NCBI GenBank assembly: GCA_903916245.1
Contig: CAIWVZ010000038.1
Span: forward strand, 1-53,038
From: an uncultured Planctomycetota bacterium
Lineage (GTDB): Bacteria > Planctomycetota > GCA-002687715 > CAIWVZ01
Length of the DNA: 53,038 nt
Direction: 5' to 3'
Positions within the stretch are counted from its first letter, which is position 1. The number at the start of each line of letters is the position of its first letter. A model generated the notes under the pieces. That model made no database searches. It worked only from the letters and a program-made list of their open reading frames with translations, and was not told the origin of the DNA. This document shows, piece by piece, positions 17,720 through 37,861 of this stretch. The translations under genes were made by a program, and so were the position numbers.

Positions 17720-17872
17720 GACCGAAATCTCCGGGTGCGAAGCGTACACGATCGGGACGTGACGACGACGTGCGGCTGCCCCGCGTTTCGCGAGGGAGCG
17801 TCGCGGGCGCTTCATTCGCGGGGCACCCCGGACATTCCACCGATCGCGGTTCCAATGATCGACGTGGGGGCC

Positions 17873-17884: not shown

Positions 17885-19741
17885 ATGCGATCCCTCTCTC
17901 GACACCTCGCGGGCCTGCTCGTCGCCACGGCCTCGCTGTCCGCCCAGTTCCCCGCTACGTCCGCGACGAACGCGCCCATCGCGAACGCGTCGGGCGACCA
18001 AGCCGTGCCGAAACTGGCGGTCACCGCCGACGGCGGCTCGTGGATCGCTTGGTTCGACGGGAGCGTCGGCGGGTATGCGGTCCGCATCCAACGGCTCGAT
18101 CGCAACGGCTACGAGCAGTTCCCCCACAACGGGCTCCTCGTGAGTTCGAACCCGCAGTCCACGTCGTTGGTGGACTGGGATCTCATCACGGACTCGTCGG
18201 GGAACGCGGTTCTCACGTTCACCGACACGCGTGCGGGAGGCGATCTCGACGTCTACGCCTACCGCATCTCGCCTTCGGGACAGTTCCTTTGGGGAGCCAA
18301 CGGCATCGCCCTGTCGAACGACGCGCATTACGAAGCGAATCCCGTCGTCGCTGAAATGACGGACGGGTCGTTCGTGTTCGCGTGGATGCGTTCGGTCACG
18401 GGCGCGGTGGCGCGCCTCGGTGTTCAGCGCCTCGATCCGTCGGGACTGCCGCAACTCGGGGCGAACGGCATGGAAATCTTCGGCGGAACCACCGACGACC
18501 CGGGTTTCGTGGGCATCGTTCCGTCGGTCAACGGGCACTTCATCCTCGCGTGGATTCGCGACATCACGCCGTTCTCCGCCCCGCGACATCTTTGGGCGCA
18601 ACGCTACGACTCCGCGGGGACCCCGCAGTGGGGTACGGCCCCCGTGCAGGTCTTCAATTCCTCGGCCCTCCCCATCGCCTACAAGCCCGACATGATTCCG
18701 GACGGGTCGGGCGGCGCGTGGCTCGCGTGGCACGTCAGCGTCGGATCGTTCTATCAGTCCCGCGTACAGAGACTCGATGTCGCGGGCGCCGAAGTGTTCG
18801 CGCACAACGGCGTCGAAATCTCTCTCGAACCGAACCGCTCCGATTTTAATCCGTCGATCGTTCCGCTCGCGGGGACGGGCGATGTGATCGTCTTCTACAA
18901 CAAGCGCGACGCGGGTCAGGCGCAGTGGGGCATCGGCGGTCAACGCGTGACCGCGACCGGTTCGCTGGCTTGGGGCACGAACGGGATCGAATACGTCCCC
19001 TTCGACTCGACGGTGGAAGAAGTGCCGCGCGCGGTGGCGACGTCGAACGGCGCCATGTGTTTCGTGGAGCAGGGCGTTCCGGGGCAAAACGCGGGAGTCA
19101 ACGGTCTCGTGGGTTTCCGCGTCGACGGCGCGGGCACTCCGCTGTGGACGCCGACGGTATTGACCGTCGCCGCGACCCCGAGCGGGAAAGACAAGTTGCG
19201 CGTCGCCCCGGTTCCGGGCGACGGCGCCGTCCTCGTTTGGAACGATTCACGTACGGACATCAACGACGTCTACGCTCAAAGCGTCCGAGGCGACGGTGGT
19301 CTCGGTCCGCTTCCGGCGTCGTTCACCGCCTACGGATGCGGCCTCAATCCGTCGAATTCGTTGACCCTCGTCGGCGGCGCACCGTCCATCGGCGGCGGAT
19401 TCAGCCTCGCCGTCGTCGATCCGACCGCGTCGTTCGCGCCGGGAGCCTCGACGTTCCTCGCTCTCGCCGCATTGCCGCCGGTCGGTTTCCCGTGCGGGAT
19501 CCCCCTCGGAAACACCGGCATGGCACCCGGAACCACGGGAGAACTTCTCGTCGATCTCGGCACGTTGCTCGTTCCGCTGATCGGAGGAAGTCCCTACGGG
19601 ACAACGCCTTCGACATTCGGATTGACGGTCCCCGCCCTCCCGTGGCTCGTCGGCATCGACGTGTTCTCGCAGGCCGCGGTGATCGACGCGGCGGGCCGCG
19701 TCGGTCTGACGCAAGGCGGCGTGATCCACATCGGCCCCTGA
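17885..19741 (+). CDS. Secreted repeat (probable beta-propeller) protein with conserved C-terminal beta-domain
   Basis: Signal peptide SLSA-Q; repeated QR[LY]DxxG..WG..G blades; C-terminal domain shared with other ORFs in window. Confidence 0.85.
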   Translation: MRSLSRHLAGLLVATASLSAQFPATSATNAPIANASGDQAVPKLAVTADGGSWIAWFDGSVGGYAVRIQRLDRNGYEQFPHNGLLVSSNPQSTSLVDWDLITDSSGNAVLTFTDTRAGGDLDVYAYRISPSGQFLWGANGIALSNDAHYEANPVVAEMTDGSFVFAWMRSVTGAVARLGVQRLDPSGLPQLGANGMEIFGGTTDDPGFVGIVPSVNGHFILAWIRDITPFSAPRHLWAQRYDSAGTPQWGTAPVQVFNSSALPIAYKPDMIPDGSGGAWLAWHVSVGSFYQSRVQRLDVAGAEVFAHNGVEISLEPNRSDFNPSIVPLAGTGDVIVFYNKRDAGQAQWGIGGQRVTATGSLAWGTNGIEYVPFDSTVEEVPRAVATSNGAMCFVEQGVPGQNAGVNGLVGFRVDGAGTPLWTPTVLTVAATPSGKDKLRVAPVPGDGAVLVWNDSRTDINDVYAQSVRGDGGLGPLPASFTAYGCGLNPSNSLTLVGGAPSIGGGFSLAVVDPTASFAPGASTFLALAALPPVGFPCGIPLGNTGMAPGTTGELLVDLGTLLVPLIGGSPYGTTPSTFGLTVPALPWLVGIDVFSQAAVIDAAGRVGLTQGGVIHIGP

Positions 19742-19819
19742 GGAACGCGGTCGACTTCCCACACGACGGCGGTGGATGAAGCTTCGGCGGATATCATGAC
19801 GGTCCATCGGAGTCCCACC

Positions 19820-20806
19820 ATGTCGACGCGCTTCCTCGCCGCCGCCCTGCTCGCCGCGGGCGCCATCGCCGCTCAAACGCCCTACGTCTTCCACCCGGAC
19901 GACAACACGACGGCGTACACGGCCCCCATCAACAACTTCCCGTGGTACACGACCACCACGGGATACCGCGCTCAGACGATCTTCCCCGCTTCGGCACTGT
20001 TGAACGTCGCGGGCGACATCACGTCGATCGCTCCGTTCCTCGGCGTCTCCACCCCGGCCGGGACGGCGACGGTTACGTACACGGTGATTCAAGTCACGAT
20101 CGGTCGTGCGGCGTCCCCCACGCTGACCACGACCTTCGCGAACAACATCGTTCCCGGGACGGGCGTGCAGGTGTTGAATCTCACGAACCTCACCGTCAAC
20201 TCGCCGGTCAACGGGTGGTACGACATTCCGCTTCAGATCCCCTTCACCTACACGGGCGGGGATCTCGTGCTCGACGTCACCACGCAGGTTCCTTCCGCGG
20301 TCTACTTCTCATCGTCCGTCGGCGGTTCGACCGCCCCCGTCCCCCGTCTGACGGCGTCGGGTCTCGCGCCGGTGACGGGCAGCGTCTCGACGTCCGGAGG
20401 AACGAAGTACCGCCTCGGCTACAACCCGATCAACCGACTGATCGCGTCGACCATGGGCAACGGCGCGGGCGATCTCACGCTCGCCGTGCAGAATCTCGTC
20501 CCCAATGCGACGGAGGGCTTCCTCCTCATCTCGACCGACGCGACCCATCCGCTCGGGACCGGCCCGATGTTGGGGCTGTGGCCGGACGCCCTCACTTGGC
20601 AGATCGTGATGGAACCGTTGGCGCTCGGCAGCCCGTTCCATTTCCCCTGCAACACCGGGTTCGGGCTTTTCCCCGACCAGCCCCTCTCCGTCCCTGCGGG
20701 ATCGCTTTCGTTCCTCGCGGGGCAGTCGTGGGACTTCGGGTTCGCCGTCTTCGCGCCGGGGTTCAACTACCTCGGCCGATCCCCGGTCAACCGCGTCGTG
20801 TGGTGA
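19820..20806 (+). CDS. Secreted protein with conserved C-terminal domain
   Basis: GGAG RBS, signal peptide AIAA-Q; paralogous to 20934..22208. Confidence 0.85.
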   Translation: MSTRFLAAALLAAGAIAAQTPYVFHPDDNTTAYTAPINNFPWYTTTTGYRAQTIFPASALLNVAGDITSIAPFLGVSTPAGTATVTYTVIQVTIGRAASPTLTTTFANNIVPGTGVQVLNLTNLTVNSPVNGWYDIPLQIPFTYTGGDLVLDVTTQVPSAVYFSSSVGGSTAPVPRLTASGLAPVTGSVSTSGGTKYRLGYNPINRLIASTMGNGAGDLTLAVQNLVPNATEGFLLISTDATHPLGTGPMLGLWPDALTWQIVMEPLALGSPFHFPCNTGFGLFPDQPLSVPAGSLSFLAGQSWDFGFAVFAPGFNYLGRSPVNRVVW

Positions 20807-20842
20807 TCGACGCCGATCGCCTCCCCATGAAGGGGAAACAAG

Positions 20843-20877
20843 GCCCCGTCGCCTCGCGGCAGCGGGGCTTTTCCTTT
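20843..20877 (+). terminator. Putative rho-independent terminator
   Basis: GC hairpin gccccgtcgc-ctc-gcggcagcggggc (bulged) followed by ttttccttt. Confidence 0.55.
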
Positions 20878-20933
20878 ACTCTCGCAAACAGGCCGCCCGA
20901 CGGCGTGACCGCCTTCCCGATGGAGATCGCCCC

Positions 20934-22208
20934 ATGAAGACCCTCGCAATCGCCGCGCTCGTCATCACCGCGGCCGCCCACGCGCAGTTCTCCCAATCGC
21001 TCCCGAACGGTCTCCTGACCGCGGAGGGAAGTTCGTCGTCCTCGTATCCGTTCGCGACGGCGAATCCGAACTTTTGGCATTGGAACTACGACACGTCGAA
21101 CTTCGTCTCCACGGGGCCGATCCTCATCCACACCGTGTCGTTCCGTGCGAACGGCGGCGCGACCGCCAACGGCGGCACCCTGCCGATCGAACTCACGATG
21201 TGCTCGTCCTTGGTCGATTGGTCGACGACCGGAAGCACGACGTCCTACGCCGCCGTGATGGATACCGACGCCACCCTCGTCTTCTCGGGCAACGTCACGT
21301 TCCCGGCGGGGACGAACACGACGCCCGCGGCATGGATCCCGGTCACGCTTCAGACCCCGTTTCTCTACGATCCGACGCTCGGGAAAGACTTCATCCTTCA
21401 AATCAAATCCGCCGGTCCGAACGCGGCGGTCATGTCCGCGATCGATCTCCACTCCGGCGGCAGCGCTCAGCGCTACGGCAGCCAAACCAGCGCCACGCTC
21501 GCCGCGGCGAACTTCGCGAACACCAACATCGTCGGCGTCTGCAAGATCGACTACACGCCGCCCGCGGGGCTCTTCACGTCGTTTACCGCGACGCCCCTCG
21601 TCGGACGCGCACCGCTGACCGTCCAGTTCACGAACACGACGTGGACGAGCGATCCGAGTGGTGTGACGAGTTTCGCCTGGGACTTCGACGGTGATTCGAT
21701 CGTCGATTCCACACTCCCGAACCCCATCCACACGTACCTGACCCCCGGCCCGCAAACGGTCACGCTGACGACGACGGACACGATCCACTCGCCGAACACG
21801 CTGACACGCCCCAACCTGATCAACGTCCAGCAGTATCTGTTCTCGGCGGTGACGTCGGGGGGTGGTCTCGGCGACCTTATTCTCACGGGAGTTCCGGGTC
21901 TCGGTGCCCCGACGTCGACGGAAGGCTACACGTTCATCTCGTTCGCCATCCCGGCCGCCGTCGGCACGGGCCCCTTCTTCGGGTTGAGTCCGGATGCGGC
22001 GACTTGGTCGAGCTTCTCCTACGCCGCCGCTCCGGGATTCCCGTTGCACTACATCCGTGTTCCCGGTGTCTATCCGGAAGCACCGCTCGTCGCACCTCCG
22101 GGAACGTTTTCCGGGTTCACCGGCATCACGATCGATTTCGTCCAAGTCGGCGTCACGCCCGCGTTCGGACTCGCATTCGTGAGTAACGTGTCACGCGCGA
22201 CCTTCTGA
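20934..22208 (+). CDS. Secreted PKD-domain protein with conserved C-terminal domain
   Basis: Signal peptide AAHA-Q; PKD motif APLTVQF...WDFDGD...NPIHTY..PG..TVTLT. Confidence 0.88.
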   Translation: MKTLAIAALVITAAAHAQFSQSLPNGLLTAEGSSSSSYPFATANPNFWHWNYDTSNFVSTGPILIHTVSFRANGGATANGGTLPIELTMCSSLVDWSTTGSTTSYAAVMDTDATLVFSGNVTFPAGTNTTPAAWIPVTLQTPFLYDPTLGKDFILQIKSAGPNAAVMSAIDLHSGGSAQRYGSQTSATLAAANFANTNIVGVCKIDYTPPAGLFTSFTATPLVGRAPLTVQFTNTTWTSDPSGVTSFAWDFDGDSIVDSTLPNPIHTYLTPGPQTVTLTTTDTIHSPNTLTRPNLINVQQYLFSAVTSGGGLGDLILTGVPGLGAPTSTEGYTFISFAIPAAVGTGPFFGLSPDAATWSSFSYAAAPGFPLHYIRVPGVYPEAPLVAPPGTFSGFTGITIDFVQVGVTPAFGLAFVSNVSRATF

Positions 22209-22260
22209 AATCGCGGGTGCACGCGGTTGCCGTCGGCGCGGCGATCTGCCACCGTGCATC

Positions 22261-23610
22261 ATGCGATTTACCGATCTCGGGCTGCACGCGGACATCGTTC
22301 GGGGCATCAAGGACCTCGGCTATCAACGGCCGACGCCGATCCAGGAGTCCGCGATGCCCGCGGCCCTCGAGGGGAAAGATCTTCTCGCGTGCGCGGCGAC
22401 CGGCAGCGGCAAGACCGCCGCTTTCGTCGTTCCGATTCTCCAACGGCTGATCGCGAAGCCCCGGGCGGGGACCCGCGCTCTGATCCTGACGCCGACGCGC
22501 GAACTCGCGGCGCAAATCGCCGAGTCGATTTCCGAACTGGCCGTCCACACCCCGCTGTCGGGTGCCGCCATCTACGGGGGCGTGAGCATGGGCCCGCAGG
22601 AACACGCGCTGCGCACCGGCGTCGACATCATCGTCGCCACGCCGGGTCGTCTGCTCGATCACCTGCGTTTTCCCTACTGCAATTTCGAGCGTCTCGAAGT
22701 TCTCGTTCTCGACGAGGCCGATCGGATGCTCGACATGGGATTCCTCCCCGATATTCGTCGCATCCTGAAGCGCCTTCCGACGCGCCGTCAGACGTTGTTC
22801 TTCTCGGCCACCATGCCGCCGCCCATCGCCGAACTCTCGCGCGAAATGTTGCACGCGCCGACCATGATCGATCACGCGCGCCGCGCCGAACCGCCCGCGC
22901 TCATCGACCAACGCGCTTTCGCCGTCGACGGCACACGCAAGTCGGAGTTGCTCTACGACCTCATCACGAAGGGCGAGATCAAGGACGCGATCGTCTTCAC
23001 GCGAACCAAGGCCCGCACCAATCGACTCGCGGAGTTCCTCGAGAAGCGCGGAGTCGCCTGCGGCCGCCTCCACGGAAACCGTTCGCAACGTCAACGTGAA
23101 ACCGCCCTCGATCAGTTCAAATCGGGGAAGACCCGCATCCTCGTCGCCACCGACATCGCGGCGCGCGGAATCGACGTGCAACAACTCGGGCACGTGGTCA
23201 ACTTCGACGTTCCCCACGTCCCCGAAGACTACATCCATCGCGTAGGACGTACGGGTCGCGCGGGATCCGCGGGCGAAGCCATCACCTTCGTGTCTCCCGA
23301 AGAAGAGAAGGACTTTCGGGCCATCGAGCGCGCCATCGACCGCGTCGTCGAACGCATCCGGCACCTCGACTACACCCGTCCCTCGGCCGACGCGACGAAG
23401 CGTCCGCCCGCACGCGGCCCTCAACAAGCACCGCAACGCGCCCCGGCACGCGGCCCGCAGAGCGCGGCGCCCCGAGCGCCTGCGCGAAAGCCCGCCGAAA
23501 GCCCGCGCCCGTTCTTCCACAAGGGAGTTTCGGAGCGTCCGACGGGTCGTGCCGTGACGCGAACCCATGGACGTTCGGGCGGCGGCCCGCGGCGTCGGCG
23601 TTCGCGCTGA
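22261..23610 (+). CDS. DEAD-box ATP-dependent RNA helicase (RhlE-like)
   Basis: Q motif, ATGSGKT, PTRELA, TPGRL, DEAD, SAT, ARGID, HRVGRTGR; basic tail. Confidence 0.96.
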   Translation: MRFTDLGLHADIVRGIKDLGYQRPTPIQESAMPAALEGKDLLACAATGSGKTAAFVVPILQRLIAKPRAGTRALILTPTRELAAQIAESISELAVHTPLSGAAIYGGVSMGPQEHALRTGVDIIVATPGRLLDHLRFPYCNFERLEVLVLDEADRMLDMGFLPDIRRILKRLPTRRQTLFFSATMPPPIAELSREMLHAPTMIDHARRAEPPALIDQRAFAVDGTRKSELLYDLITKGEIKDAIVFTRTKARTNRLAEFLEKRGVACGRLHGNRSQRQRETALDQFKSGKTRILVATDIAARGIDVQQLGHVVNFDVPHVPEDYIHRVGRTGRAGSAGEAITFVSPEEEKDFRAIERAIDRVVERIRHLDYTRPSADATKRPPARGPQQAPQRAPARGPQSAAPRAPARKPAESPRPFFHKGVSERPTGRAVTRTHGRSGGGPRRRRSR

Positions 23611-23620
23611 CGCCGAACGA

Positions 23621-24598: not shown

Positions 24599-24671
24599 AA
24601 CCACCGCCTTGCCGCACGCCGTGCGGCAAGGTTCTCATCGGTCGATTCGGCGAAGGGCGTTTAGGTTCCGA

Positions 24672-26294
24672 TCAAAGCACCGTAATCGTCAACGGCGGCG
24701 AAATGTTTCCCACACCGGTCGGATTGGAGGCGTCGACGACGACGAGAGCCGCGTGAAAGACGATCCCGGCGAGCGACGGCACCGCGGGAATCGCGATGAA
24801 CCCTTGCGCCAGTCCCGCGGAATCCAAGGTCCCGACGTTGCCGACGAAAACTCCGTTGCCGGGCGACAAAGAGAGTTGCAGGAGAAAGTCGTAGTTGAGC
24901 GGAATCACCCGAGCGTCGGCGAGCGGAATCCCGGGTTGTGTCCCCGCCGCGAAACCGACGACGAAAGGAAGGTTCGCGTCGGAGGGACTGGAGCAATTGA
25001 ACGTCGCCAACGACCCGACCGTCGCCGGCGTCGCCAACGCGACGTTCGCCCCGCCCGCGGCTCCGATGCGCTGGAACATGTAGGCGTAGGGACCGGGTGC
25101 GGCGCCGTCACGCCACGTGACGTCGATCATGCCGCCCGTCCGGTTCGAGACCGGATACAGGGTGCCCCGGATCGCGGGAAGGTAATAGGCGTGACTCGCC
25201 GTCGTCGCGGGGCGCAAATCCAACACCGGTGTGAAGGTCGCGTCGCCGAGGTTCTTCTCCGCAAGTCGCAACGGACCGCCCGCGGAGAGATCGCGGTAGA
25301 CGGTCGAGCATTTCCCCGTCGTTTCGTCGGCGGCGATCGAGAAGATGAAGTAGTTGGCGATGTTGGTGTACTGCGCGGACGTCGCGGAGAAGAGCGGGGT
25401 CGACGGCGACCAAACGCCGTTCGGGTCGCGACGCAGGTAATTGAATCCCCATGTCGAACCCGCGGCCGCGTCGACGACGACGATGGCATGGACGTATCCG
25501 AGGTCGTCGGCCGCGAGCATTCCGTAATAGTCGTTGGTGGGCGTCGTGTTCCCGAGGATGGTGGTCGTCGTCGCCCACCCCGATGCGGGGTTGTAGACGC
25601 GGTGTTCGATATTTCCGGAACCGACTCCTCGGTAGAAGGCGGCGTGGATCTGTCCGGCGGCGTCGACCGTGATGCGGGTGTTTTGCGCACTTCCCGACGG
25701 GCTGATCGCGCCGACGTCCGTGAACGTATTCCCGGCGGCCGATGGAGCGGTGCTCTTCAAGAGTTTCTCCACCCACGACGTGGCCCCGTGCGCAACCAAC
25801 CAAATCGTGTCCGACGCGTCCGCGATGACGTCGAGTGCCGCCGTGCGTGACGTGACCGCGGCCCCGGTCACGCTTCCCACGATAAGCGTTGGCGAGACGA
25901 CGTTGGTCGTCGGGTCGTAGTTCCGGTAGTACTGCTGGTAGTAGGACGGGTAGTAGTACCGTCCCCACGTCGCGTGAAGTTTTCCGGTTCCATCGACGCA
26001 CAGCGCGCAGACGTTGACGAGATTCGTTCCATTCAAACCCGAGGCCGCATCGTTGAAGACGACGGTGCTCGAAGTCCACGTCGCCCCGCCGTCGAGGCTC
26101 GATTGAAGAACGAGGGGCCGGTCGCCCCCCGCGACGTCGACCATCGAAAGCGTCCACAACCGCCCGGATCCATCCCGAACCAAGTTCCGGGCGTTGTATC
26201 CGGTTCCCGCCGTCGTCGATTGTTGAAGGATGGCCTGCGCCGCGACGGGCAGGGCCATGAATACGACGACCGCGACAACAGTGCGCAACGACAT
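24672..26294 (-). CDS. Secreted BNR/Asp-box-type propeller protein with conserved C-terminal domain
   Basis: Signal peptide PVAA-Q; SLDGGATW Asp-box; repeated D..G..H blades. Confidence 0.85.
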   Translation of the reverse strand: MSLRTVVAVVVFMALPVAAQAILQQSTTAGTGYNARNLVRDGSGRLWTLSMVDVAGGDRPLVLQSSLDGGATWTSSTVVFNDAASGLNGTNLVNVCALCVDGTGKLHATWGRYYYPSYYQQYYRNYDPTTNVVSPTLIVGSVTGAAVTSRTAALDVIADASDTIWLVAHGATSWVEKLLKSTAPSAAGNTFTDVGAISPSGSAQNTRITVDAAGQIHAAFYRGVGSGNIEHRVYNPASGWATTTTILGNTTPTNDYYGMLAADDLGYVHAIVVVDAAAGSTWGFNYLRRDPNGVWSPSTPLFSATSAQYTNIANYFIFSIAADETTGKCSTVYRDLSAGGPLRLAEKNLGDATFTPVLDLRPATTASHAYYLPAIRGTLYPVSNRTGGMIDVTWRDGAAPGPYAYMFQRIGAAGGANVALATPATVGSLATFNCSSPSDANLPFVVGFAAGTQPGIPLADARVIPLNYDFLLQLSLSPGNGVFVGNVGTLDSAGLAQGFIAIPAVPSLAGIVFHAALVVVDASNPTGVGNISPPLTITVL

Positions 26295-26432
26295 GGGGAA
26301 TCTCCTCGTCCGCGTTCCGATACTCGTTCCGACGCCGACGGCGCGAAACGGTGCGTCGACGATCCTAGTCCCGCACTCGCCCGACTGCCAACTCGCCCAC
26401 CGTGATTTCGGAGCGTCCCGTCCCGACCCGGT

Positions 26433-27377: not shown

Positions 27378-27535
27378 ACGCGCAAGTCTCGGGCGACGGG
27401 GTCGACGATCAACGTGTTTCGATCTTTTCGAACAAAGCGGGCGTGACTTATGGATCTCAAACCGTTCAAAAAGGCACGACGCCGACGGGCACGAACTTCG
27501 CCGGGATCCGCCCCCGCGCTCCGAATAGACGCACC

Positions 27536-27670
27536 CTGCACGACGGAGCGGAGCGGAACCACCAAAGCATCGACGACACCATCATCGCCCCGAATGGTGA
27601 GGTTGGTACGGCTGCACGAAAGCTGCGCTGCCGTCAGCGCCTCGGTGGGATGTTCAAGCACGACTCCGCG
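27536..27670 (+). pseudogene. C-terminal remnant of an integrase-core (rve-type) IS transposase
   Basis: ERNHQSIDDTII...EVG...LRCRQRLGGMFKH resembles the ERNHQG...CRERLGGLL tail of such transposases; rest absent. Confidence 0.6.
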
Positions 27671-28431
27671 TCGCGACCTGAGCAGCCACCAAGCCGTTCA
27701 TTGACAATCTGAGACACGTCGGACGAAGAGCCACGGCGAAGATCTGTCCCGTGTGGTGCAAAACCTCATCCGAGCCCCCACGTTCCTGCATATTTCACGT
27801 GGTTCTCGCTTCAGAGCGCCGGACGACGAGCCCGAGGCCAGCGAGGCTCTCAGTCTAGACCCGCGGTCGACGTCGGGACATTTCTGGTCGTGGTGTGGAG
27901 CGTCGGTCCTGTTCTGGCCGTGGCCGTGATGGTCGTCGCTTGACTTGCTGCAAACGTGCCGACGCCCCCCGATGACGGAGGACGTGCCGCCTGCCAGCCA
28001 TGGCGCGAAGGATGACACCATCTCGGCCTGATGCGATCCCAATGGGCCCCGCCGTCACACCCGATGGCGCGATCCAAGCGGGCGGCTCGCCAGATCGGCA
28101 AGGCCTCGCAAGTCTGGACCTTCTCGATCGATTCCAGCACCGAGCAGTCCGTAGCCCCCGGCCGGGGCATGGGCACCAGGGCCGCCAGAGTTCGGTAGGC
28201 ATCCGGAGGCTGGCGCCGGACCACCAAGGGCGCCGTTTGCCGTCGACATCCGTTACTCCGCAGCGGGGGGCTCTCTCGTGCTCGGCCTGCTAGCGCGTGA
28301 CGCCGCTACGCATGCCCCCGCCATGACGCCCACCCGGAGGCAGCGAGACTACCGATCTGGAATCGGAGACGACCACGTGGCCCATTCCACCCTTCAAGCC
28401 TGAACCTGCGGGCGCGGATGAGCGATCGCAC

Positions 28432-28605
28432 CACACGGGAGAGGCCGTGGTGACGTTCTTCGGACTGCCGCGCGTCAGTATTGGCGGAATTGACGGCGCA
28501 CTAAAGTCATCGTCCTCTTCTGACTTGATGGCGGGGGCACGACACCTCGTCTCAAAGAGAACCGTTTGGGTCGTTACCGCGGCGAACCGCAAACTCCGCG
28601 GTTAG
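28432..28605 (+). pseudogene. Recombinase C-terminal stub (distal copy)
   Basis: HTGEAVVTFFGLPRV...SSSSDLMAGARHLVSKRTVWV...RG*, homologous to the stubs at 33 kb and 39.2 kb. Confidence 0.75.
28511..28573 (+). repeat. att junction; contains cttgatggcgggggca (28524-28539), identical to the tRNA-fMet 3' end plus flank
   Basis: 58/63 identical to 33101-33163; 16/16 identical to 39300-39315. Confidence 0.9.
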
Positions 28606-28685
28606 AACTTGACTCTTCAATTCGAGCACACTTGAACGTTACGAACTGCACCGGACGGGATGGGCATTGTTCGGCACACGGAATC

Positions 28686-28982
28686 CTATGGCTCAATCAC
28701 CTCCCAAGCATCGAGGGGAACGAGGTAGAACTTCAACGCGTATGCCTTTGCCGAATCGACCGAGTCCATCCAGTAATCCGCGATCCGATGATTCATAGCC
28801 CACGGACTCGACCCAGAGTCAGCCCGGTAGTACCACAGGAGGCACCCACCCCCGTCCGTACTACTCTCGATCTGAAGGCCTGACGGCAGATGTGGGTCAC
28901 TCTCAGCGAAAGGGACTCTCGATAACACGGCGTTTACATTGACGCATGCCCGAAGCTTCATTGTGGCGGTCTCCAAACTCAC
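28686..28982 (-). CDS. Putative immunity protein for the RHS toxin
   Basis: 98 aa, GTGA-coupled to RHS stop; C-terminal DYW..S...A...A...Y.V....W pattern. Confidence 0.7.
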   Translation of the reverse strand: MSLETATMKLRACVNVNAVLSRVPFAESDPHLPSGLQIESSTDGGGCLLWYYRADSGSSPWAMNHRIADYWMDSVDSAKAYALKFYLVPLDAWEVIEP

Positions 28983-31900
28983 TTAATCTGCCGATGGAAG
29001 TTCGAGTTCGCTCTCCCAGGGTTTAGCTCCTCAAAATGCACGTGCGGCCCACAAGGCGAGTCGACGCCCAGGATGTCGTTATCCGTCATCCTGAATTGTC
29101 GCACGCCGTCGGCCGAGACAAATCGACCTCCGCCACAGTCTTTGTAACCTGGGCCTAGGAATGTCATTCCGTCTTCGAGCGCCTCCGACGGATCAATCGG
29201 ATAAGGTGTATTTGCAGATCGAGCGGGCACTCCCGGGATGCGGCATGCTTCTTGGGCGCATCGCTTGACTGCAGCACACCGAGGTCCAGCACCCATTGGA
29301 CCTGTCGTGCCTCCAGTTGCCGATCCACTCCCAGCTTCAGCCGGTGGCCCACGCGGAGTCGAGTCAAAGGTTTCACCGGGTTTCGTCTTGTCAACTATCG
29401 AGCCATCAGCAGGTCTCCTGAGACTCGGAGTCGTCCCTCTTTCAAGGGGCGGCTTGGGCCTCTCGGGCGATCCACCGCCTGCACCTGGAGTTGACCCTGG
29501 ACGAGCATCGCGTGCGGGCCGATTGGATTTGGGCTTCTTCCAACGCTTGGCAGCTTCCTCGGCTTCACGCGCACGGTTCAGATTCCGCATCCGCACTGTC
29601 TGACCCGTTACATTGATTCCAAGCTCGATGACCTCGCTTGCCAGCTCCGCATCTTCCGGGTCGGCACCGGCAGCCAGCATCGCGTGCTTTGTTCCCTCCC
29701 CTGCCGCTGCTGCCACCCCTGCAAGGATCATCTGTCCACCCAGCAGTTGCATCCCACCTGCGAGAACTGGCAACGCTGCGCCGCCCGTCGCAACGACGAC
29801 CGCTGCCGTCGCAAGAGTCACGAGGATCTCAACGGCACCTTGCTGGCACGCGGCAGTGATTCCACTGATGATCATTGAGCCGACGGCGTCCCAAAATCCA
29901 CAGCCGCTCGGATCCAGGAACCTCAGCGGATTCCCCCCGGCGTATTGGTACCGATTCATCCCGTCGACGAACCCTGCGGGGTCAAGCTGGAGGAACCTCC
30001 CAATCGCAGGCGAGTACGCCCTCGCTCGGTAGTGGTACAGGCCGATTTCACTGTCGTAGACATGGCCTGTGTACCCAAACGGGTTGCCTACGGTTGACGA
30101 GGTGACGGGCTGGCCCTGCCCGTTGTAGATCTGAGTTTCACCGTTCGGGCCGTAGAAGTACCGTTCAACGACCGCCCCTGATCCATCCGTGATGGCGGAC
30201 ACGGAGCCCAGCCGATCCAGATGGCAGTAGAACGTGGAGGTCGCGGTCTCGATGACGGCAGCCCTGTCGATCCCGTCGCCGTGGATGAAGTGGGCGACCC
30301 GGGTGCCCGAGCCGTCGTACTCCTCCATGAGCTGGACGCCGTCGTAGACGAACGTTGAAGTCTTCGCGTTCGTCCCGAACACTTGTTTCCGGACTCGGCG
30401 GCCGACCGCGTCATACTCAAACGACACAAGCAATGCTGTCGTCGACGCATCCCGCACCTCGATCAGGTGGTTCGCCCAGTCGTAGGCGTAGGTCTTCACC
30501 CCGTCTGACTTCAGGTTCCCGTTCTGGTCATAGGTAAACGACACTCCCCCAACTGCACTGTAGGAGGACTCCAGACCTCCGGTGTACGACGTCGTGGCGG
30601 GGGTGCCCGATCCCCATGCGGTCCATGACGTCTGGCTGCGGTTTCCCCGTCCGTCGAGCGTCGATCCGAGCGTTCCCAGTGCCGAGGTTGGGTTCGTCAG
30701 GGCATTCGCGGCGATCGTCGACGAGGTCACCCTGTCGAGGTCGTCAACCGTGTGGAGGTCGTAGACCGACTCCGGCTGATATGCGACCGATGTCACGTTG
30801 TTCGCAGCGTCGTACCCGTAGCCGCGTCCGAAGAACACGCCGCCTGAGTTCGTGTGTTGTTCGAGGGATGGCCTGAGGTAGGAGTCGTAGTTCCGGGTCC
30901 AACTGACGCCGTTACCGAAGGATCCCGCGGTTCTTCTTGAGGCTCCAGTCCAGGTCGATGTGAAGAGAGTCCCTGTCGTCGGCGCGGCTCCCGTCACGGA
31001 CGTCACCCGCTTGAGAGCGTCCCGGACATAGTTGATCCCGCGACCACTCGGAGCCGTACGCGAGACCCGTGCTCCGTCGATGTCGTATCCGTAACTGACC
31101 GTCCGGCCGTCTTGCGATTCCGTGAGGAGGCGACCCAAGGAGCTGTAGCTGAGCGTGTCCGCATGGCCGGAGCCTGCGTTGTTGCTCGCGGAGATTAGAC
31201 GGTCGGCAGCGTCGTAGGCAAAGGACTCGGAGGTAGCCCCCACGACACCGCTCGCAAGCGTCATGGTCCGACCGGTCATGCGCCCAAGAGCGTCAAATGC
31301 CTGCTGGACAACCGTGCCGTTGCGGTCCGTCCAACGGGTCAGGTTGCCACCCGCATCGTGGACGAAGGTCTCGACCTTCGAGCCGGGATAGGTTGCGGAG
31401 GTACGCCTGTTCAGGTGATCGTAGGCAAACGAGACCGTCTCCCCTGCGGAGTCCGTCCGCGAGACCATCCGCCCCCCTGCGTCATAGGCAAAGGAGTCAA
31501 CGAGGTTGGTTCCGCCATGTGGGCGAGTCCGCGACGTCACCCGTCCAAGCCCGTCATAGGCCAGTCGCGTTTCGTTGCCGCGTGGATCGATCGACGTCAA
31601 CACACGACCGTCGACGTCGAAGATCGCGGTGGTCGTGAGGTTTGACTGGTTCTGCGCTCCCCCGATCGGGAGGTGGGACACCGTCGACACGTTCCCATCA
31701 ATGTCGTAGGAGATGTTCGTCTGGGCGGTCAGGACATCGGCGTTGTTGATCCGGTCGTACGCTGTCTCGGCGACCACCCTCCCTCCTGAGATGACGCGTG
31801 AGGACTTGTTCCCCAGCGCATCACGGGTGGACGTCAGCCTCCCGCCGCCGTCGTATTCAAAGGTCGTGGCCTGTCCCCCAGGGGCGACCGACTGCGTGAT

Positions 31901-31992
31901 CAATGCCGATCGATCAAAGCTCAGCCTCGACTGTGCATAGGTCGTCCCCGACACGAGGACATCTGAGCCATAGGTCCGGCCTCGCTCATCAA
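28979..31992 (-). pseudogene. 5'-truncated RHS-repeat protein with intact core and C-terminal toxin domain
   Basis: YD..GR repeats; core YRARAYSPAIGRFLQLDP..DGMNRYQY..NPLRFLDPSG; repeats begin abruptly near 31990 with no plausible start. Confidence 0.88.
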
Positions 31993-32001
31993 TGAGAACG
32001 C

Positions 32002-32577
32002 GTGGACGCCACCGTAAAGCGCGTGCTCGAATCTGCGTTTTTGATTCCAGAGGCAAGAAGTCCAATCGTGAAGTTGCTCCAAAGTGAGACGATTGGCGAC
32101 CAGACACTCGACGCAACGGATATCGTCGCCTCGCTTCGCAGGGCCACGATTCGCGTCGAGTTTCCGCCAATGCCCGATACCGACGAGCCGGCAGACTTGA
32201 TCACAAATCGCTTGCCTCGGGCGTCCTCAGCAAAAGCATCGTTGTCGTCTCCACGAGGCGTTTTGCCAGTCGACGGCAGCCGACTCACGATCATTGAACT
32301 GATTCAGTCCAAGCGGCTAACAGCGAAGACCGGACTCATTCATAAGTCGCGCCGAGGTGATTTGCACGCCGCGATTGAATCCGACGGACGGGTGACGTTC
32401 GAGGGCAAACAATGGCCAACGCTTTCTAGTGCAGGTGCTGCGGCACGTCGATCCGAGGCTCCCGGCCGATGGAAGAGCGACAACGTTCCCGCGACGAACG
32501 GTTGGACGTACTGGTACATAAGGCATCCGAAGACGGGTGCGCTTATGACGATGGATGATTTTGCGCGACAGCCATGA
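32002..32577 (+). pseudogene. RAMA-domain protein, probably the 3' remnant of a restriction-associated gene
   Basis: A.I..DGRV.FEGK.W.TLSSAG...NGWTYW; in-frame stop at 31993 and no RBS. Confidence 0.7.
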
Positions 32578-32832
32578 CTCAGTCACTCTGAAGGCGAAGC
32601 CGACTCTTGCAGCATCTCGAACTTCGATGTCACACTGAGTCGATCTTAGAAACACCTGTGCGCTGCTTCGTGCGTTAGCCCATGGTTCAAGATCGTCCAT
32701 TACAAGCTTGTCGGGTTGGGCGTACGGTGCAGATGCTCAACGGTCTCGCGCTCACGTCATGGAGTCCTCGTACTTGACCACCGGGCTTTGAATTCGCGGC
32801 GCATGAGAGGTGCATGTCACACCGTGACTCTT

Positions 32833-33183
32833 GTCACGGTCAAGGCCTTGGACGACTTCCAACGCCTACGAGAATCACGACTCGACGTTGATGAGGTCAT
32901 GCGCGAGGTCAAGAAGTTGGTCAGCAGCCTTGCAAGCGTCGGCGATGTGATGGCATCGGGAACACTCAGCGAGCGACGGGACTTGTTGCAAGGATTGGTG
33001 CAGCGAATCGACTACGATCCGGCAACGGGCGCGGCGGATGTGACGTTCTTTGGGTTGCCTAGAGTCAATGTCGCCGGAGGATCTGACGGCGGAAGGAAAG
33101 CGTCCTCTTCTGCCTTGATGGCGGGCGCACGCAACCTCGTCTCAAAGAGAACGGTTTGGGTCGGGAGGAGGAGGGCTGGGTGA
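32833..33183 (+). pseudogene. Probable large serine recombinase C-terminal stub (middle copy)
   Basis: Helical stretch then ERRDLLQGLVQRIDYD...VTFFGLP; no catalytic domain; reads through att. Confidence 0.75.
33101..33163 (+). repeat. att junction (core 33114-33129, 15/16 match to tRNA end)
   Basis: Direct repeat of 28511-28573. Confidence 0.9.
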
Positions 33184-33488
33184 AGGGTGAAGTGTACCCA
33201 AAGGGGTGGGCAACAAGTGGCCGGACGGGGTTGGCCGATTGGATCCCGATGACCCGTCCGAGGCAAGAAAATCAAGGAGTTAAGGACCTGCATTTCTGGT
33301 CGATTTCAGGGATCTAAAGGCTATTTTCAATCCGGATTAGCGACTGCGACGCACAGAAATCTCACCCCAACACCGCCCCCCTTTCCAATTCCAGCCTCGA
33401 TCGGATACCGTCCACCCGTGTGGTGGGTCCCTTTCAGCCCAAAGGGGTAATCACCTTTCCGTACGCGAAAAAGTACATGGAGATAGTG

Positions 33489-35677
33489 ATGAAGGCTTTT
33501 CACGCAGTTTCCGCATTGTTCGCCATGGCGGCAGTCCTCTGCGCCCACGGCGATGAAGGTTTTACCCCCCCCCCCCCAGTAAATTAGGGACGACACGGCG
33601 ACCGCCCCCTGTGGTTGTCGGGCAACTCACCCCGTGCAGGGCGGTTCCTGTGTGGATTTCGGGTCAACAAGTGCTGAAATGCAGCGAGCACGTCGGAGCA
33701 CACATCAAAACTCGACCCGAGTCGACAGTGTACCAACTCAGGGATGGAAATATCCGGATCATCGAACCAATGTGCGACGGTCATCACAGCCACGCGAACA
33801 AGCCAGACGTACTCTGGTTCGTCTGCCAAGCGGGTCCTCGCGTTGCGCCGAATGTCAACCCGGGTGTCGACTCGCCCTACTCGGCCGTTGACTACCCACC
33901 CAACCCAAACAACGCTGCACAGCCCGGAACACCAGAAACCCACGAGTTGATCACAAGGCACTGGAAGTATCCGAGGACGATTACGTACACGGTTCACAAG
34001 CCGTTCCCGATTACACCTGCTCCAACCTCGTGCGCTTTTCCCAATGTCATTCTGTGCAACATGAATGCGTTTGCTTACTCGACACCGGGGTACTACACCT
34101 ACGTTGACTTCGAGACGGACATCAACTCAATCTTTAGTGCCATCCAACAGAACAGCTTCCTCGACTTGCAATTCACAGCGTCCTCAGGCACCACCGATTG
34201 GGAGGCGGGCCTCCCTGCCACACCGGCCTTGGTTTCAACGGACTCATTCGAGTGGCGGGTAGGCGGGACACCAGCAGGACCTACGGGGAACGGTGTCAAC
34301 GACATCATCTTCCTTAAGAACCACTACTTCGTGGCATCCGGTGGGGGTGTCAGCATGGACGTCGATCCCGACAACGGCGCCATTAACGAGTGCGACATCA
34401 TGTTCTCAGCCCTTGTGCCTCCAGGGGCTCCTCCTGCATGGCCTGTGGGCGGTTACGGCCCACGATTTACCACCGGACTCATCCATGAGATCGGCCACTT
34501 TCTTGGCCTTGATCATACGAATTTGGCTCCTGGATGCGGGTCAAACAACATTCCGAATGGTGGAAGTCCAACGTCCTACGCGATCAACTTTGCGTCGACG
34601 AGCCAGTTTCCCGCCATGGTCGGCGCTTTCACCTGGGCATTTACTGCAACAGGCGTACCTGCAAATTACGTAGCGCAATTCGTCACGCAGTTCCCCGCAC
34701 TGGGCACGACACTACCGACGGGTGCCAATTCTGACGACCTCGCCGGCTTAGCGAGGCTATATCCAATTGCCATGTGCGATTCCCCGACTCTCGGCAAACT
34801 TCCTTGGATCAACCGTTTTGGGACGATTCGAGGCAAGGCGATCTATGCGGGCGTTCCGCAGTTTGGTGCGAATGTACTGCTTTCCAGCCACGTGGTGTCT
34901 GGCACGCCGGTAACGGTGCCGGGGGTCCCGGTCGTTGGGACCGTCAGCGGGACTGCACGCCTTGCGCCTACGTCCATCGTAGGCGCCTTGGACCTTGGCA
35001 CCAGCGCTGCGACCACCGGTGACTATCGGCTCATCCTCGTACCTACCGGAAGCTGGGATATCGTTGGAGAACCCCTAACTTCGGCTGGAATTTATCTTGC
35101 CCCAAACGCACTTCCAAACGGTGGCACCGGACTCTTCCCCGTCACTTTCGGCGAATGGTGGTACCACACGGCTACGGCACCGAATGCGTCGATTAATCCT
35201 GGGTACAATCCTCTTTGGAACACAACGACCAGCCCGGGGCAGACCGCCATCATCTCAAGTGCTGGCTCAGGTTCTACCCTGGATTCACTGCAGGTTGTTC
35301 CAGGCTCCGTGATCGACGTTCAGACTCCCCTGGAACTTGCAGGATCACCGGCATTCGAGAACGTCTCGCGACCCCTGGTGGAGATCCTCCAACGTGGTCT
35401 CGTCGGCGGCCTCATTCCCACTAGCATCACAATCCGCGTGACGACGGCGACGGTGAGGCCTCCCCCGCTCGTGGTGACGGCAAACGGAGCACTCGTTTCT
35501 CCTACATATGTCTCGGGCCCTGTCGGTGGCGGGCCCTTTCAATGGACGTTCAATCTTCCATCCGCGGCCATACCTTCGGGATCGGTTCGCCCGCTAAACG
35601 TCACAGCCACCGCCAAGGAGGGAACCACGCCACCCTATGGAACCTCGGTGTATGGCATCAACACCGTGATCTACTAG
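33489..35677 (+). CDS. Secreted matrixin-like zinc metalloprotease, frameshifted at a C13 tract (main ORF 33611-35677)
   Basis: HEIGHFLGLDH plus PAM Met-turn; signal peptide from ATG 33489 (GGAG RBS) is in a different frame. Confidence 0.85.
33565..33577 (+). repeat. C13 homopolymer tract
   Basis: 13 consecutive C between signal-peptide frame and protease frame. Confidence 0.95.
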
Positions 35678-35686
35678 GACAGCACC

Positions 35687-37468
35687 ATGCCAACGTCGAC
35701 AAATGGGACTTCGATGGCTGCTCGTCTCGCGCGAGGTATCGCTGCCTGTGTGCTGGCCGCTGCGTTCGCGCGCGGCCAGCTCATGAGGGACCTTTCGCCG
35801 ACCGCGTATTTCGCAACGAGCGGAATGCCGGTTTATTCGGGCATTCCGTATTCGCAATTCTCGCGGCCTCGCGTTGCGGATTTGAACGGCAACGGCCGGC
35901 CAGACCTCGTCATGTACGACGGCACCGCGGTCTCAGTGATGCTTGACCCAACGCTCGGCGTATCTACCGCCGCAACTGGCTACGAAACAGCCGGGGCACT
36001 CGCCTCGGGCGGAAGCAACGATCGCGTCGCCCCCCCCGCGGTATGCGACTTCAATGGAGACGGCTATCTAGATATCGTCGCCGTCCGGTATCAGATGAAT
36101 GGAGCCACAGGGACACCAGCAGATGCCAACTCCCACCCGACGCCATTCGTTATCTACCTCAACCAAGGGGATGGGACGTTTCAGTTGTCCCAGACCATTG
36201 CGGCATCGAGCACACTTCTCTTTCGCCATGACGCATTCGACATTGACGGGAACGGCCTCGGCGATCTGATTGTCACGACATGGGTGCCAACTACAACGTT
36301 CGGAGGGTACCAAGCGAACGTAACGGTATTCCTGAACAATGGGTCGACGTTAGTTCCAACCGGCGCAACATTTCCAGGGCCCAATGAAGGACGTTACGCC
36401 GGACATGGTGACTTTAACGGAGATGGACGTAGCGATCTGCTCTTTGCTTCGTCGCAGACGAACGTTCAATTTAGCCCATACTATGTCATGTTCGGTCTCC
36501 CGAACAATGCGTTTTCAAGCCCCGTTGCCTTCAACCAGTCTTATGTTGCCACCTACTTCACCGAGTTCATTCCAAAGATCGCCGACCTTGACAGCGATGG
36601 TTATGACGACATCGTGATTAGCTACCCTAGTCCGTCGATTCTCGTCTTTTGGGGAGGCCCCAATGTCCATCTCAATGGGGCACCAGCGACACCGATTGGG
36701 CAATTCCCAGCATGGCAGGGGCATGAATTTGTTGGGTGTTTTGACGTAGATGGTGACGGCACTCTCGACGTTGTGGGCACCGATTGGTTGCCGGGCGCTT
36801 GGATCTATCCAACCTACCCCCCATTTACCACACTGGTTATGTTGAGGAATCGCGGCGCTCGTCAGTTTTCGCCCACAGCCGTGAGCCTCGGTTCTTCGTT
36901 CAATAGCTCATACCCTGGCACAACCTTCAGTGGGTACGGCTTCACTCAACTTGCCTTCGCGGCGGCCGACTTCGACGGCGATGGAGATGTCGATTTGGTA
37001 GGCCTGCCAGGATGGGTTAATGCTCCCCAGACGAATCACCGAGCCATCTACTGGGAGAACACGTCCAACCTTCGCGGTGGGTGTGGGGGCATTGTCGGGA
37101 CGCCTTCGCTAACGTACTCAGCTGCGTACTTGGGTAACGCTGGATTCTCGCTCGGCATCACGGGTGCGGGTGCGACGGCACCTGCTGCCTTCATCGTTTC
37201 ACAGAGTCGCCACATGCTGACAGGGTGCGGTATCGTCCCAAATCTTGCCGTTGGTCAGGTGATTCTTCCAACCCCGTCGCTCGGGCTTACCATGACCGAT
37301 GCGCTTGGCTCCGCTTCGCTCGCGATTCCGCTTCCCAATGTCCAGTCTCTCATTGGGGGCCTCTACTACATCCAAGCCGGCGTAGTTGATCCGCTAGGTG
37401 GTTACCAGGTGGCCCCAGGGCTCAACCTCGCCCTTTCCAACGCCCACACCGTCCTGATCGGACCTTAG
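35687..37468 (+). CDS. Secreted FG-GAP/VCBS-repeat protein with conserved C-terminal domain
   Basis: Seven D[LFIV][ND][GS][ND]G..D repeats; signal peptide; C-terminal ...QAGVVD...LSN...IGP. Confidence 0.9.
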   Translation: MPTSTNGTSMAARLARGIAACVLAAAFARGQLMRDLSPTAYFATSGMPVYSGIPYSQFSRPRVADLNGNGRPDLVMYDGTAVSVMLDPTLGVSTAATGYETAGALASGGSNDRVAPPAVCDFNGDGYLDIVAVRYQMNGATGTPADANSHPTPFVIYLNQGDGTFQLSQTIAASSTLLFRHDAFDIDGNGLGDLIVTTWVPTTTFGGYQANVTVFLNNGSTLVPTGATFPGPNEGRYAGHGDFNGDGRSDLLFASSQTNVQFSPYYVMFGLPNNAFSSPVAFNQSYVATYFTEFIPKIADLDSDGYDDIVISYPSPSILVFWGGPNVHLNGAPATPIGQFPAWQGHEFVGCFDVDGDGTLDVVGTDWLPGAWIYPTYPPFTTLVMLRNRGARQFSPTAVSLGSSFNSSYPGTTFSGYGFTQLAFAAADFDGDGDVDLVGLPGWVNAPQTNHRAIYWENTSNLRGGCGGIVGTPSLTYSAAYLGNAGFSLGITGAGATAPAAFIVSQSRHMLTGCGIVPNLAVGQVILPTPSLGLTMTDALGSASLAIPLPNVQSLIGGLYYIQAGVVDPLGGYQVAPGLNLALSNAHTVLIGP

Positions 37469-37814
37469 TCCGAATGCGTTCGGATCTCCGCGCCATGGAT
37501 GAGTCGTTGGGTGCAGATTTGGCGAACGACGGCCCCGTTCGCCTTTGGGCTGTGCCGTGTTGTCAACGGCGACTCCAACGTAAGCGTCGGGCCTAGAATC
37601 GTGATGTGTTGATGTGCTCCAGAACGGCGCCTGTGTACCCCGTGTGGTGGAAGAGCTCATCCGAGGCTGTCGTTTCTTGCTGAACACATGCCGTTCTGGC
37701 TCCGAAGCCTCTGGACGACGAGTTCGGGGTGCGGACGCCAGTTTACACCCGGTCCCCAGCCTTCTGCGCTATCCCCTTCCCATAGGAATCGTGGTCAAAC
37801 CCTTCCACGTCCTC

Positions 37815-37861
37815 GCGGTCTTCGGAACCGCAGGTCGCCCGTTCGAATCGGGCCGGGACCG
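37815..37861 (+). pseudogene. 3' part of tRNA-Arg(TCG), probable relic att site
   Basis: GCGGT-CT-TCG-GA-ACCGC anticodon arm, AGGTC, GCCCG-TTCGAAT-CGGGC T arm, CGGGACC-G; no D arm or correctly spaced 5' acceptor strand. Confidence 0.8.

Follow-up and report, generated by a model that had tools for sequence, protein, structure and literature searches.

The window analysed here is a stretch of 53,038 nucleotides from an uncultured Planctomycetota bacterium (GenBank assembly GCA_903916245.1, contig CAIWVZ010000038.1, positions 1 to 53,038 of the forward strand). Five of its genes encode putatively secreted proteins, designated A to E, which differ in their passengers and end in related domains. 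These domains belong to an undescribed superfamily of predicted immunoglobulin (Ig)/FN3-like beta-sandwiches of ~105-120 amino acids (aa), in which two types were distinguished, type 1 (A, D and E) and type 2 (B and C). In the reading that we favour with moderate confidence, the domain serves as a modular tag by which cargo is exported or retained at the surface, and which is read by a lineage-specific partner. By analogy with known tags we infer the sorting or retention role, the localisation of the cargo and the dedicated partner. The evidence comes from the position and copy number of the domain, its coupling to signal peptides, the variety of its passengers and its distribution across genomes.

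Protein A (618 aa, 17885..19741, + strand) has a signal-peptide-like N-terminus and a passenger without match in Pfam or NCBIfam, followed by a divergent type-1 domain with a Cys pair at 19376..19738 (+; hidden Markov model (HMM) envelope 501-614 of the 621-aa open frame). Protein B (328 aa from the ATG, 19820..20806, +; open frame from 19772) comprises a signal peptide, a passenger of unknown family and a type-2 domain at 20447..20803 (+; HMM E 8.5e-44), which was modelled as all-beta by AlphaFold2 (AF2) and whose end ...NRVVW abuts the stop codon with 0 residues in between. Protein C (424 aa, 20934..22208, +) has a signal peptide, a PKD_4 domain (E 3e-8, residues 226-288) and a type-2 domain at 21849..22205 (+; HMM E 1.9e-36), which also lies 0 residues from the stop codon, ends in ...SRATF and shares 41% identity with the B domain over 123 columns. 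Protein D (540 aa, 24672..26294, -) combines a signal peptide and a passenger without Pfam match with a type-1 domain at 24690..25034 (-; HMM E 3.5e-18, envelope 467-581 of the 586-aa open frame). Protein E (593 aa, 35687..37468, +), encoded in a zone of lower G+C content with flanking RHS-repeat genes, has a signal peptide, an FG-GAP_3 match (E 2.4e-30) and a type-1 domain at 37112..37465 (+; HMM E 2.1e-16), which contains a Cys pair and one inserted loop; its AF2 model has eight strands, with low confidence for the loop 40-55. All five N-termini consist of a basic and then a hydrophobic stretch and end in ..AQ or ..GQ (heuristic, not SignalP). The C-termini of the five proteins had no match in Pfam or NCBIfam scans. 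The coordinates and signal-peptide-like starts of the five open reading frames (ORFs) were confirmed as originally predicted. Pfam recovered two of the predicted passengers, namely the PKD of C and the FG-GAP of E, but the 'propeller' of A and the 'BNR' repeats of D gave no Pfam match at E ≤ 0.1. A length of 120-140 aa had been claimed for the domain, which exceeds the ~105-120 aa measured.

For the genome-wide count proposed in the original prediction, all stop-to-stop frames of at least 80 aa in the genome of the window (G000; draft, 3.17 Mb, 460 contigs, 92.5% complete) were translated, which gave 20,389 frames, and HMMs were iterated from the C-termini. The D/E seed converged at 44 type-1 frames (HMM of 107 positions) and the B/C seed at 18 type-2 frames (HMM of 118 positions), with zero overlap between both sets. 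This split into type 1 and type 2 agrees with an earlier remark that some of the five C-termini form a subtype. The termini of A, D and E share only 22-29% identity when aligned with each other, therefore profiles were used. While D and E match the type-1 HMM with the E-values given above, A reached 0.025, and 0.0029 against a broader HMM built from 197 sequences. A profile of A's own family (four sequences) was aligned to the type-1 profile by hhalign with a probability of 95.7% and E 9.9e-9 over 104 columns, compared to 0.4% for type 2. Judged by these profiles, A is a divergent type-1 member. Relatedness of the five C-termini, as first proposed, was hence established by direct identity for B and C, by one HMM family for D and E, and by profile-profile alignment for A.

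The profiles of type 1 and type 2 were aligned over 100 collinear columns (hhalign 73.7%, E 2.9e-5). When the 197-sequence type-1 profile was compared to type 2, 69% and E 4.4e-5 were obtained, versus 0.4% and E 0.17 for a reversed control. In the ESM Atlas, both types adjoin the same unnamed clusters of ~117 aa with scores of 0.97 and 0.95, and Planctomycetota is the commonest phylum label of these clusters. Both HMMs have a match in L186, a protein from a related genome, with 3.8e-15 for type 1 and 17.7 bits across HMM positions 11-118 for type 2. Based on sequence comparison, the two types are probably distant relatives. Some type-1 domains, those of A and E among them, share a conserved Cys pair. 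The loops of type 2 are strongly conserved (GTGP.FGL.PD and G.PLH), with Gly, Pro and Ser residues invariant or nearly so, and 15 of the 18 frames of G000 end with Phe or Trp. A C-terminal aromatic residue is typical of the signals of outer-membrane proteins; the type-2 end recalls this but was given no weight.

Structures were predicted by AF2 with alignments of paralogues, using the E domain for type 1 and the B domain for type 2. Both models are all-beta sandwiches, for type 1 with a predicted local distance difference test score (pLDDT) of 83.1, a predicted template modelling score (pTM) of 0.71 and one low-confidence loop, for type 2 with a pLDDT of 92.6 and a pTM of 0.84. Foldseek found nothing in the PDB at E ≤ 1e-3 for either type. 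In a comparison against 48,161 chains with VIA-align, for which a Z below 8 may reflect merely a common arrangement according to the calibration of the tool, the best matches of type 1 were the MG domains of complement C3/C5 (Z 7.8, root-mean-square deviation (rmsd) 3.1, 94-96 residues), followed by Ig-like receptors and the Big domains of intimin/invasin. The best match of type 2 was an FN3 domain of LAR (Z 6.8, rmsd 2.9, 82 residues). The C-terminal domain (CTD) of PorU, a domain of the type IX secretion system (T9SS) kind (6za2_B, 1061-1157), ranked 43rd against the type-1 model (Z 6.4, rmsd 2.9, 82 residues). The structure prediction suggested earlier accordingly yields Ig/FN3-like sandwiches for both types, but a match to the PorU CTD which is no better than that to unrelated Ig-like domains. 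Profile searches of PDB sequences gave nothing meaningful for both types, and no Pfam family was found in more than one member when 42 type-1 and 18 type-2 tag sequences were searched at E ≤ 5. Neither Pfam (2025 copy) nor NCBIfam (release 20) contains an entry for the domain, and no description of it was found in those parts of the full-text literature which were provided by one library. The term 'uncharacterised' used in the original prediction is appropriate, since Pfam, NCBIfam and PDB sequences gave no match and the fold matches are generic only.

The position of the domain was determined first of all in G000, using crude in-house heuristics for signal peptides and gene calls. Type 1 ends within 17 aa of the frame end in 42 of 44 frames, and type 2 ends 0-3 aa from the stop codon in 18/18 frames. 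In the two remaining type-1 frames, the domain directly follows the signal peptide, namely in L021 (C141:3713-5290, -), where Kelch repeats come after it, and in L028 (C173:421-1938, +). All 62 carrier ORFs of this genome contain a single copy, neither internal nor in tandem. A profile search over 1.84 billion cluster representatives gave 16,162 type-1 matches at E ≤ 1e-3 (1,256 at E ≤ 1e-10), and the position was inspected for the best 150 of the 16,162: 146 lie within 20 aa of the end, four follow a signal peptide (P0031, P0041, P0069 and P0127; 422-473 aa), and none is internal or in tandem. Independent of gene calls, the stop codon was checked on the DNA by fetching 60 nt downstream of top-scoring matches, which are not a random draw. 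In this set, 20/20 type-2 matches from 15 other genomes end 0-3 aa from a stop codon, and 20/20 type-1 matches from 13 genomes of other families end 0-14 aa from it, 19 of them within 5 aa. When ORFs at contig ends were left out, a signal-peptide-like start was recognised by our own heuristic in 36/37 type-1 and 13/13 type-2 ORFs. Proteins consisting of a signal peptide and the domain alone exist as well (L027 and the representatives P0068, P0099, P0160 and P0168). No distinctive linker composition was recognised in the 25 residues before the tag. Terminal position and co-occurrence with signal peptides, the second check proposed, were borne out; the exceptions to C-terminality are 2/44 type-1 domains in G000 and 4/150 of the best representatives, which are N-terminal.

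By a crude heuristic, [AGS]Q was located in the cleavage zone of 22/24 carriers with a signal-peptide-like start in G000, compared to 181/396 non-carriers with such a start and 126/1,843 internal windows drawn at random. A Gln after the signal peptide ('Q-rule') is typical of Bacteroidota. Type-I glutaminyl cyclase (PF05096), considered as a link to this Gln, gave matches in the controls but none in G000.

The passengers are diverse. Pfam matches were obtained in 31 of the 58 further carriers of G000, and every best stretch lies outside the tag. The families comprise CCP_MauG, TIG, FG-GAP/ASPIC, SBBP with DUF7948, Beta_helix/NosD, Kelch, GSDH, PD40, Peptidase_M14, Amidase_3 with Golvesin_C and fn3, matrixin M10, subtilase S8, trypsin, Laminin_G_3, PKD and LTD. 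The varied passengers noticed in the window therefore recur throughout the genome, with proteases, an amidase, peroxidases, propellers, beta-helices and lectin-like domains on one domain. Among the type-1 carriers are di-haem cytochrome c peroxidases or MauG/MbnH-like proteins (L002, C13:5049-6704; L004, C141:1968-3599; L005, C64:44271-45977). The NCBIfam cut-off for choice-of-anchor X was reached by 9/58 carriers (L001, L007-L012 and L016), several of them in tandem on one contig, and that for choice-of-anchor V by L031 (96.9 bits vs. a cut-off of 42). Paralogues of ~640 aa, partly in tandem, consist of a signal peptide, a choice-of-anchor X passenger and a type-1 tag; choice-of-anchor X paralogues are located at C284:2097-9980, C188:8196-12440, C423:11916-13964 and C64:48835-50898.

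A preprint passage on choice-of-anchor type A (10.1101/2023.03.06.531300) describes the term as denoting surface proteins with alternative C-terminal anchors, i.e., LPXTG, PEP-CTERM or T9SS. By analogy, this alternative-anchor logic may be extended to types X and V. The choice-of-anchor X passenger of L009 was rejected for an anchor-swap test, as it was found solely in G000 and G003 among 150 genomes and is uninformative; for the passenger of L031, 11 homologous matches were obtained, none with a known anchor. Choice-of-anchor V itself was searched in a sample of 150 genomes of the phylum and detected in 16 of them, and the frames around 28 matches were examined. In type-1-positive genomes there are 16 such frames, 14 of which have the stop codon inside the locus. 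Thirteen of these 14 complete frames have a tail of 121-175 aa after the passenger; nine of the tails match the type-1 HMM, and four are similar by eye, short of E 1e-3. The remaining one stops 8 aa after the passenger. The sole type-1-negative family with choice-of-anchor V (f35) has 12 frames, 10 of which stop 5-21 aa after the passenger; the other two have unrelated Lys-rich tails, and 0/12 match the type-1 or type-2 HMM. Because tailed and untailed frames are separated in this way, the tag is added to a shared passenger only in lineages which use the tag. Such lineage-dependent addition is what a lineage-specific address system would predict; an integral part of the protein would behave otherwise.

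The genome sets used for the distribution are samples, in which related genomes are not independent. Type 2 was found in 22/40 relatives including G000: all 21 further genomes of the order contain it (four families, 4-42 matches each), and it is missing from the 18 genomes that were sampled in other families of the phylum. When 5.8 billion proteins were searched by a word index, which has limited sensitivity, only 18 type-2 proteins were obtained, none of them named. Type 1 occurs in 28/150 genomes of the phylum (E ≤ 1e-5), clustered by family and covering at least 14 families: families f63 (4/4), f36 (3/3) and f8 (3/3) are fully positive, f7 (0/6) and f15 (0/6) negative. For copy numbers, up to 150 candidates were scored per genome from 62 to 459 first-look candidates. 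Type 1 has 37 copies in G001, at least 144 in G003, at least 150 each in G058 and G111, and at least 149 in G087, with 295-459 first-look candidates for the last four. Type 1 was detected in 0/5 named genomes, and a search for type 2 in five named genomes gave no match. Concerning other phyla, type 1 was detected in 0/80 genomes of the phylum of G173, with one genome not scored, and in 1/81 of that of G174, with a single match at 7.4e-8. The distribution is all-or-none with expansion in restricted lineages. These tag-bearing lineages are probably Planctomycetota, to which the ESM Atlas labels and three PSD1 domains found in G000 point. It is most likely that type 2 is an order-specific offshoot of the superfamily and that type 1 is widespread in a subset of this one phylum. 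The predicted property 'lineage-specific' accordingly fits type 2, which is order-specific in our sample, but type 1 is not private to the lineage, given at least 14 families and 16,162 representatives.

Components and signals of known sorting systems were searched with profile models. SprA_N and PorV were found in 0/3 tag-bearing genomes (G000, G003 and G058), while 2/2 Bacteroidota controls were positive with E 1e-136 to 1e-191. Por_Secre_tail (PF18962) was not found in G000; the control genomes of the same search were negative, too. Models of T9SS CTDs (PF18962/TIGR04183 and type B) gave no match on the five window proteins, 58 carriers or 60 isolated tags (E ≤ 5), and the PorU model matched only the C25 peptidase core with 97.7 bits vs. 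a cut-off of 420. PEP-CTERM models from NCBIfam and Pfam had no match on window proteins or carriers, nor did the Pfam models for dockerin, S-layer homology (SLH) and PPC (PF04151) among carriers or isolated tags. For exosortase (PF09721), 0 matches were obtained in G000, G003, G004 and G007, it was likewise missing from the family of G000, and 61/150 genomes of the phylum were positive. Sortase (PF04203) had 0 matches in G000, with three Gram-positive controls positive.

We read the domain as a cargo tag because it is terminal, single-copy, coupled to signal peptides, joined to diverse and choice-of-anchor passengers, present in hundreds of copies, all-or-none in distribution and attached in a lineage-dependent manner. 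In combination, these features correspond to the signature known from the T9SS CTD, PEP-CTERM and similar cargo tags. In this proposal, the carrier would cross the inner membrane by Sec via its N-terminal signal peptide, whereupon the folded terminal domain would be recognised by a lineage-specific partner. The partner would be either an outer-membrane machine for export or attachment, or a polymer or scaffold of the cell surface, and would bring the passenger to the cell surface or hold it there. The original prediction of an 'export, surface-attachment or S-layer-binding module' is in line with the tag signature, but nothing specific for S-layer binding was found. More specifically, types 1 and 2 might be the cargo signals of an unrecognised, T9SS-like sorting pathway with unrelated machinery, which delivers up to several hundred proteins of each genome to the cell surface; this extension is put forward tentatively, as a possibility that falls short of being probable. 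Under such a pathway, type 2 with its C-terminal Phe/Trp would represent another class of cargo or a variant that co-evolved.

Several observations weigh against the cargo-tag reading. The predicted fold is a generic Ig/FN3-like beta-sandwich and would be uninformative on function. Genes beside carriers in G000 (crude gene call based on G+C content at third codon positions (GC3), 2,273 genes) include no recurrent non-carrier family. A PorU-like partner was sought in the C25 peptidases: an 894-aa open frame in G000 (L139, C363:913-3594, +) contains a full Peptidase_C25 domain of the gingipain/PorU type (E 1.3e-58), and C25 frames of ~890-930 aa occur in 3/4 other genomes of the order which were searched (G005, G007 and G008), with several of varied lengths in G003. 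This candidate was rejected, as C25 peptidases are present in 85/150 genomes of the phylum and missing from 9/27 other type-1-positive genomes. Exosortase as a co-varying or complementary system was discarded likewise, with 11/28 type-1-positive vs. 50/122 type-1-negative genomes containing it. Di-haem CCP/MauG-like enzymes, AmiC-type amidases and TolB-like PD40 proteins are usually periplasmic in other bacteria, and because such proteins are among the passengers, the destination of the tag may lie at the wall or the periplasmic face as well as at the surface; periplasm or cell wall could replace the surface in the proposal. Finally, the rare N-terminal placement of type 1 suits a module for retention or binding better than a strictly C-terminal translocation signal; a signal with an obligatory C-terminal place should not tolerate it.

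This last point belongs to the best surviving alternative, which we nevertheless regard as rather unlikely. In the manner of dockerin, SLH or carbohydrate-binding modules (CBMs), the domain would serve for retention only, such that carriers exported by a general route are then bound non-covalently to a lineage-specific surface polymer, the wall or a scaffold, which would keep enzymes and adhesins on the cell. Its occasional N-terminal location after the signal peptide, the stand-alone proteins of signal peptide and domain, an Ig/FN3-like fold typical of binding modules, the strongly conserved type-2 loops and the failure to find a dedicated machine are all in accordance with retention. On the other hand, internal or tandem copies are frequent for PKD, Big and many CBMs, and the present domain never occurs in this way, neither in the 150 representatives nor in the 62 carriers of G000; furthermore, no ligand or scaffold candidate was identified. 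Retention overlaps with the cargo-tag reading, the sole difference being whether the tag is needed for export.

According to another explanation, the domain would be an ordinary Ig-like spacer or adhesion domain, whose position and abundance result from lineage-specific domain shuffling. The fold matches with complement MG, FN3 and intimin/invasin Big (Z 6.8-7.8) are indeed generic only, and any special function of the domain is putative. However, a spacer is hardly expected as a strictly terminal single copy (of 150 representatives, 146 have it C-terminally, four N-terminally and none internally; 40/40 at the stop codon), coupled to signal peptides, with hundreds of copies per genome, an all-or-none distribution and lineage-dependent addition to a shared passenger, and we consider this explanation very unlikely. 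Least probable, with hardly any credence from our side, is a folding or maturation domain like PPC or the P-domain, cleaved after secretion and without address function, to which several protease carriers (S8, M10, M14 and trypsin-like), the C-terminal position and the beta-sandwich fold might point, since most carriers are peroxidases, propellers, lectin-like proteins, beta-helices, an amidase or choice-of-anchor proteins, no PPC or P_proprotein match was obtained on 60 tags (E ≤ 5), and the choice-of-anchor V passenger occurs without the domain in tag-negative genomes, therefore the domain is not needed for folding of that passenger.

Protein E is encoded in a zone (27400-38300, 27.4-38.3 kb) with a G+C content of 0.57-0.62 compared to 0.64-0.70 and with poor GC3. 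RHS-repeat genes mark the zone borders at 28982-32170 (-) and 38345-39142 (-). The zone also contains an ORF with a RAMA domain (32002-32574) and an ORF of 688 aa with an HExxH zinc-protease motif and weak Pfam matches only (33611-35677). An integrase or transposase was not seen in the zone, the search of which was not exhaustive. The DNA is probably foreign or fast-evolving. Of the 'mobile island' proposed for one carrier, the lower G+C content, the poor GC3 and the RHS flanks were thus retrieved, but mobility genes were not. At 16466-17791 (-) of the window lies the gene of a secreted protein in which the 3-keto-disaccharide hydrolase (DUF1080) domain occurs twice (E 3.4e-88). Its stop-to-stop frame spuriously spans gene A on the opposite strand, which misled the GC3-based gene call.

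The domain occurs in more than 16,000 protein clusters, and single genomes encode at least 144-150 proteins with it, yet the Pfam and NCBIfam copies searched contain no entry for it and a relative with a solved structure is lacking. Much of the secreted proteome in these uncultured bacteria accordingly lacks annotation at its most informative end. If the domain is a true address tag, it would define the surface and extracellular proteome, which would include proteases, peroxidases, lectin-like proteins and adhesins, and would point to an unrecognised export or anchoring machine in a phylum with a debated cell envelope. In this case, the clean all-or-none pattern would be a handle for finding the machine by phylogenetic profiling.

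Among known systems, dockerin (with cohesin) and SLH modules tether many secreted enzymes in particular lineages. Like these, the present domain is a terminal module, usually C-terminal and occasionally N-terminal, found on many different secreted proteins of particular lineages; the partner of dockerin or SLH is encoded elsewhere in the genome. Dockerin is a helical calcium-binding fold, in contrast to the predicted all-beta sandwich, for which no Pfam dockerin or SLH match and no cohesin-like scaffold were identified. PPC is a C-terminal beta-sandwich on secreted proteases, and the present domain shares this architecture and some protease carriers, but PF04151 gave no match and most carriers are not proteases. 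PEP-CTERM, LPXTG/sortase, MYXO-CTERM and GlyGly-CTERM are similar in that a C-terminal tag is found on varied secreted passengers, including choice-of-anchor passengers, with all-or-none expansion. Signals of the PEP-CTERM/LPXTG type consist of a short motif, a transmembrane helix and a basic tail and are processed by a membrane transpeptidase. The present tag differs, being a predicted folded beta-sandwich of 105-120 aa up to the stop codon without helix or basic tail; neither exosortase nor sortase was found in G000, and exosortase does not co-vary with the tag.

The tag also resembles the CTDs of the T9SS. In both cases, a C-terminal domain of roughly 80-120 aa, for the present tag a predicted Ig-like beta-sandwich, is found in single copy on Sec-signal cargo with diverse passengers, and tens to hundreds of cargo proteins are encoded per genome in restricted lineages. 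A Gln follows many signal peptides here, which is typical of Bacteroidota, too. The differences are that no sequence match to T9SS CTDs was obtained, that SprA and PorV were not found in three tag genomes, that the PorU CTD fits the predicted fold no better than dozens of unrelated Ig-like domains do and that the present domain is N-terminal in a few carriers. The present family, which is unrelated in sequence and occurs without the T9SS, would be a C-terminal beta-sandwich cargo tag of the kind known from that system.

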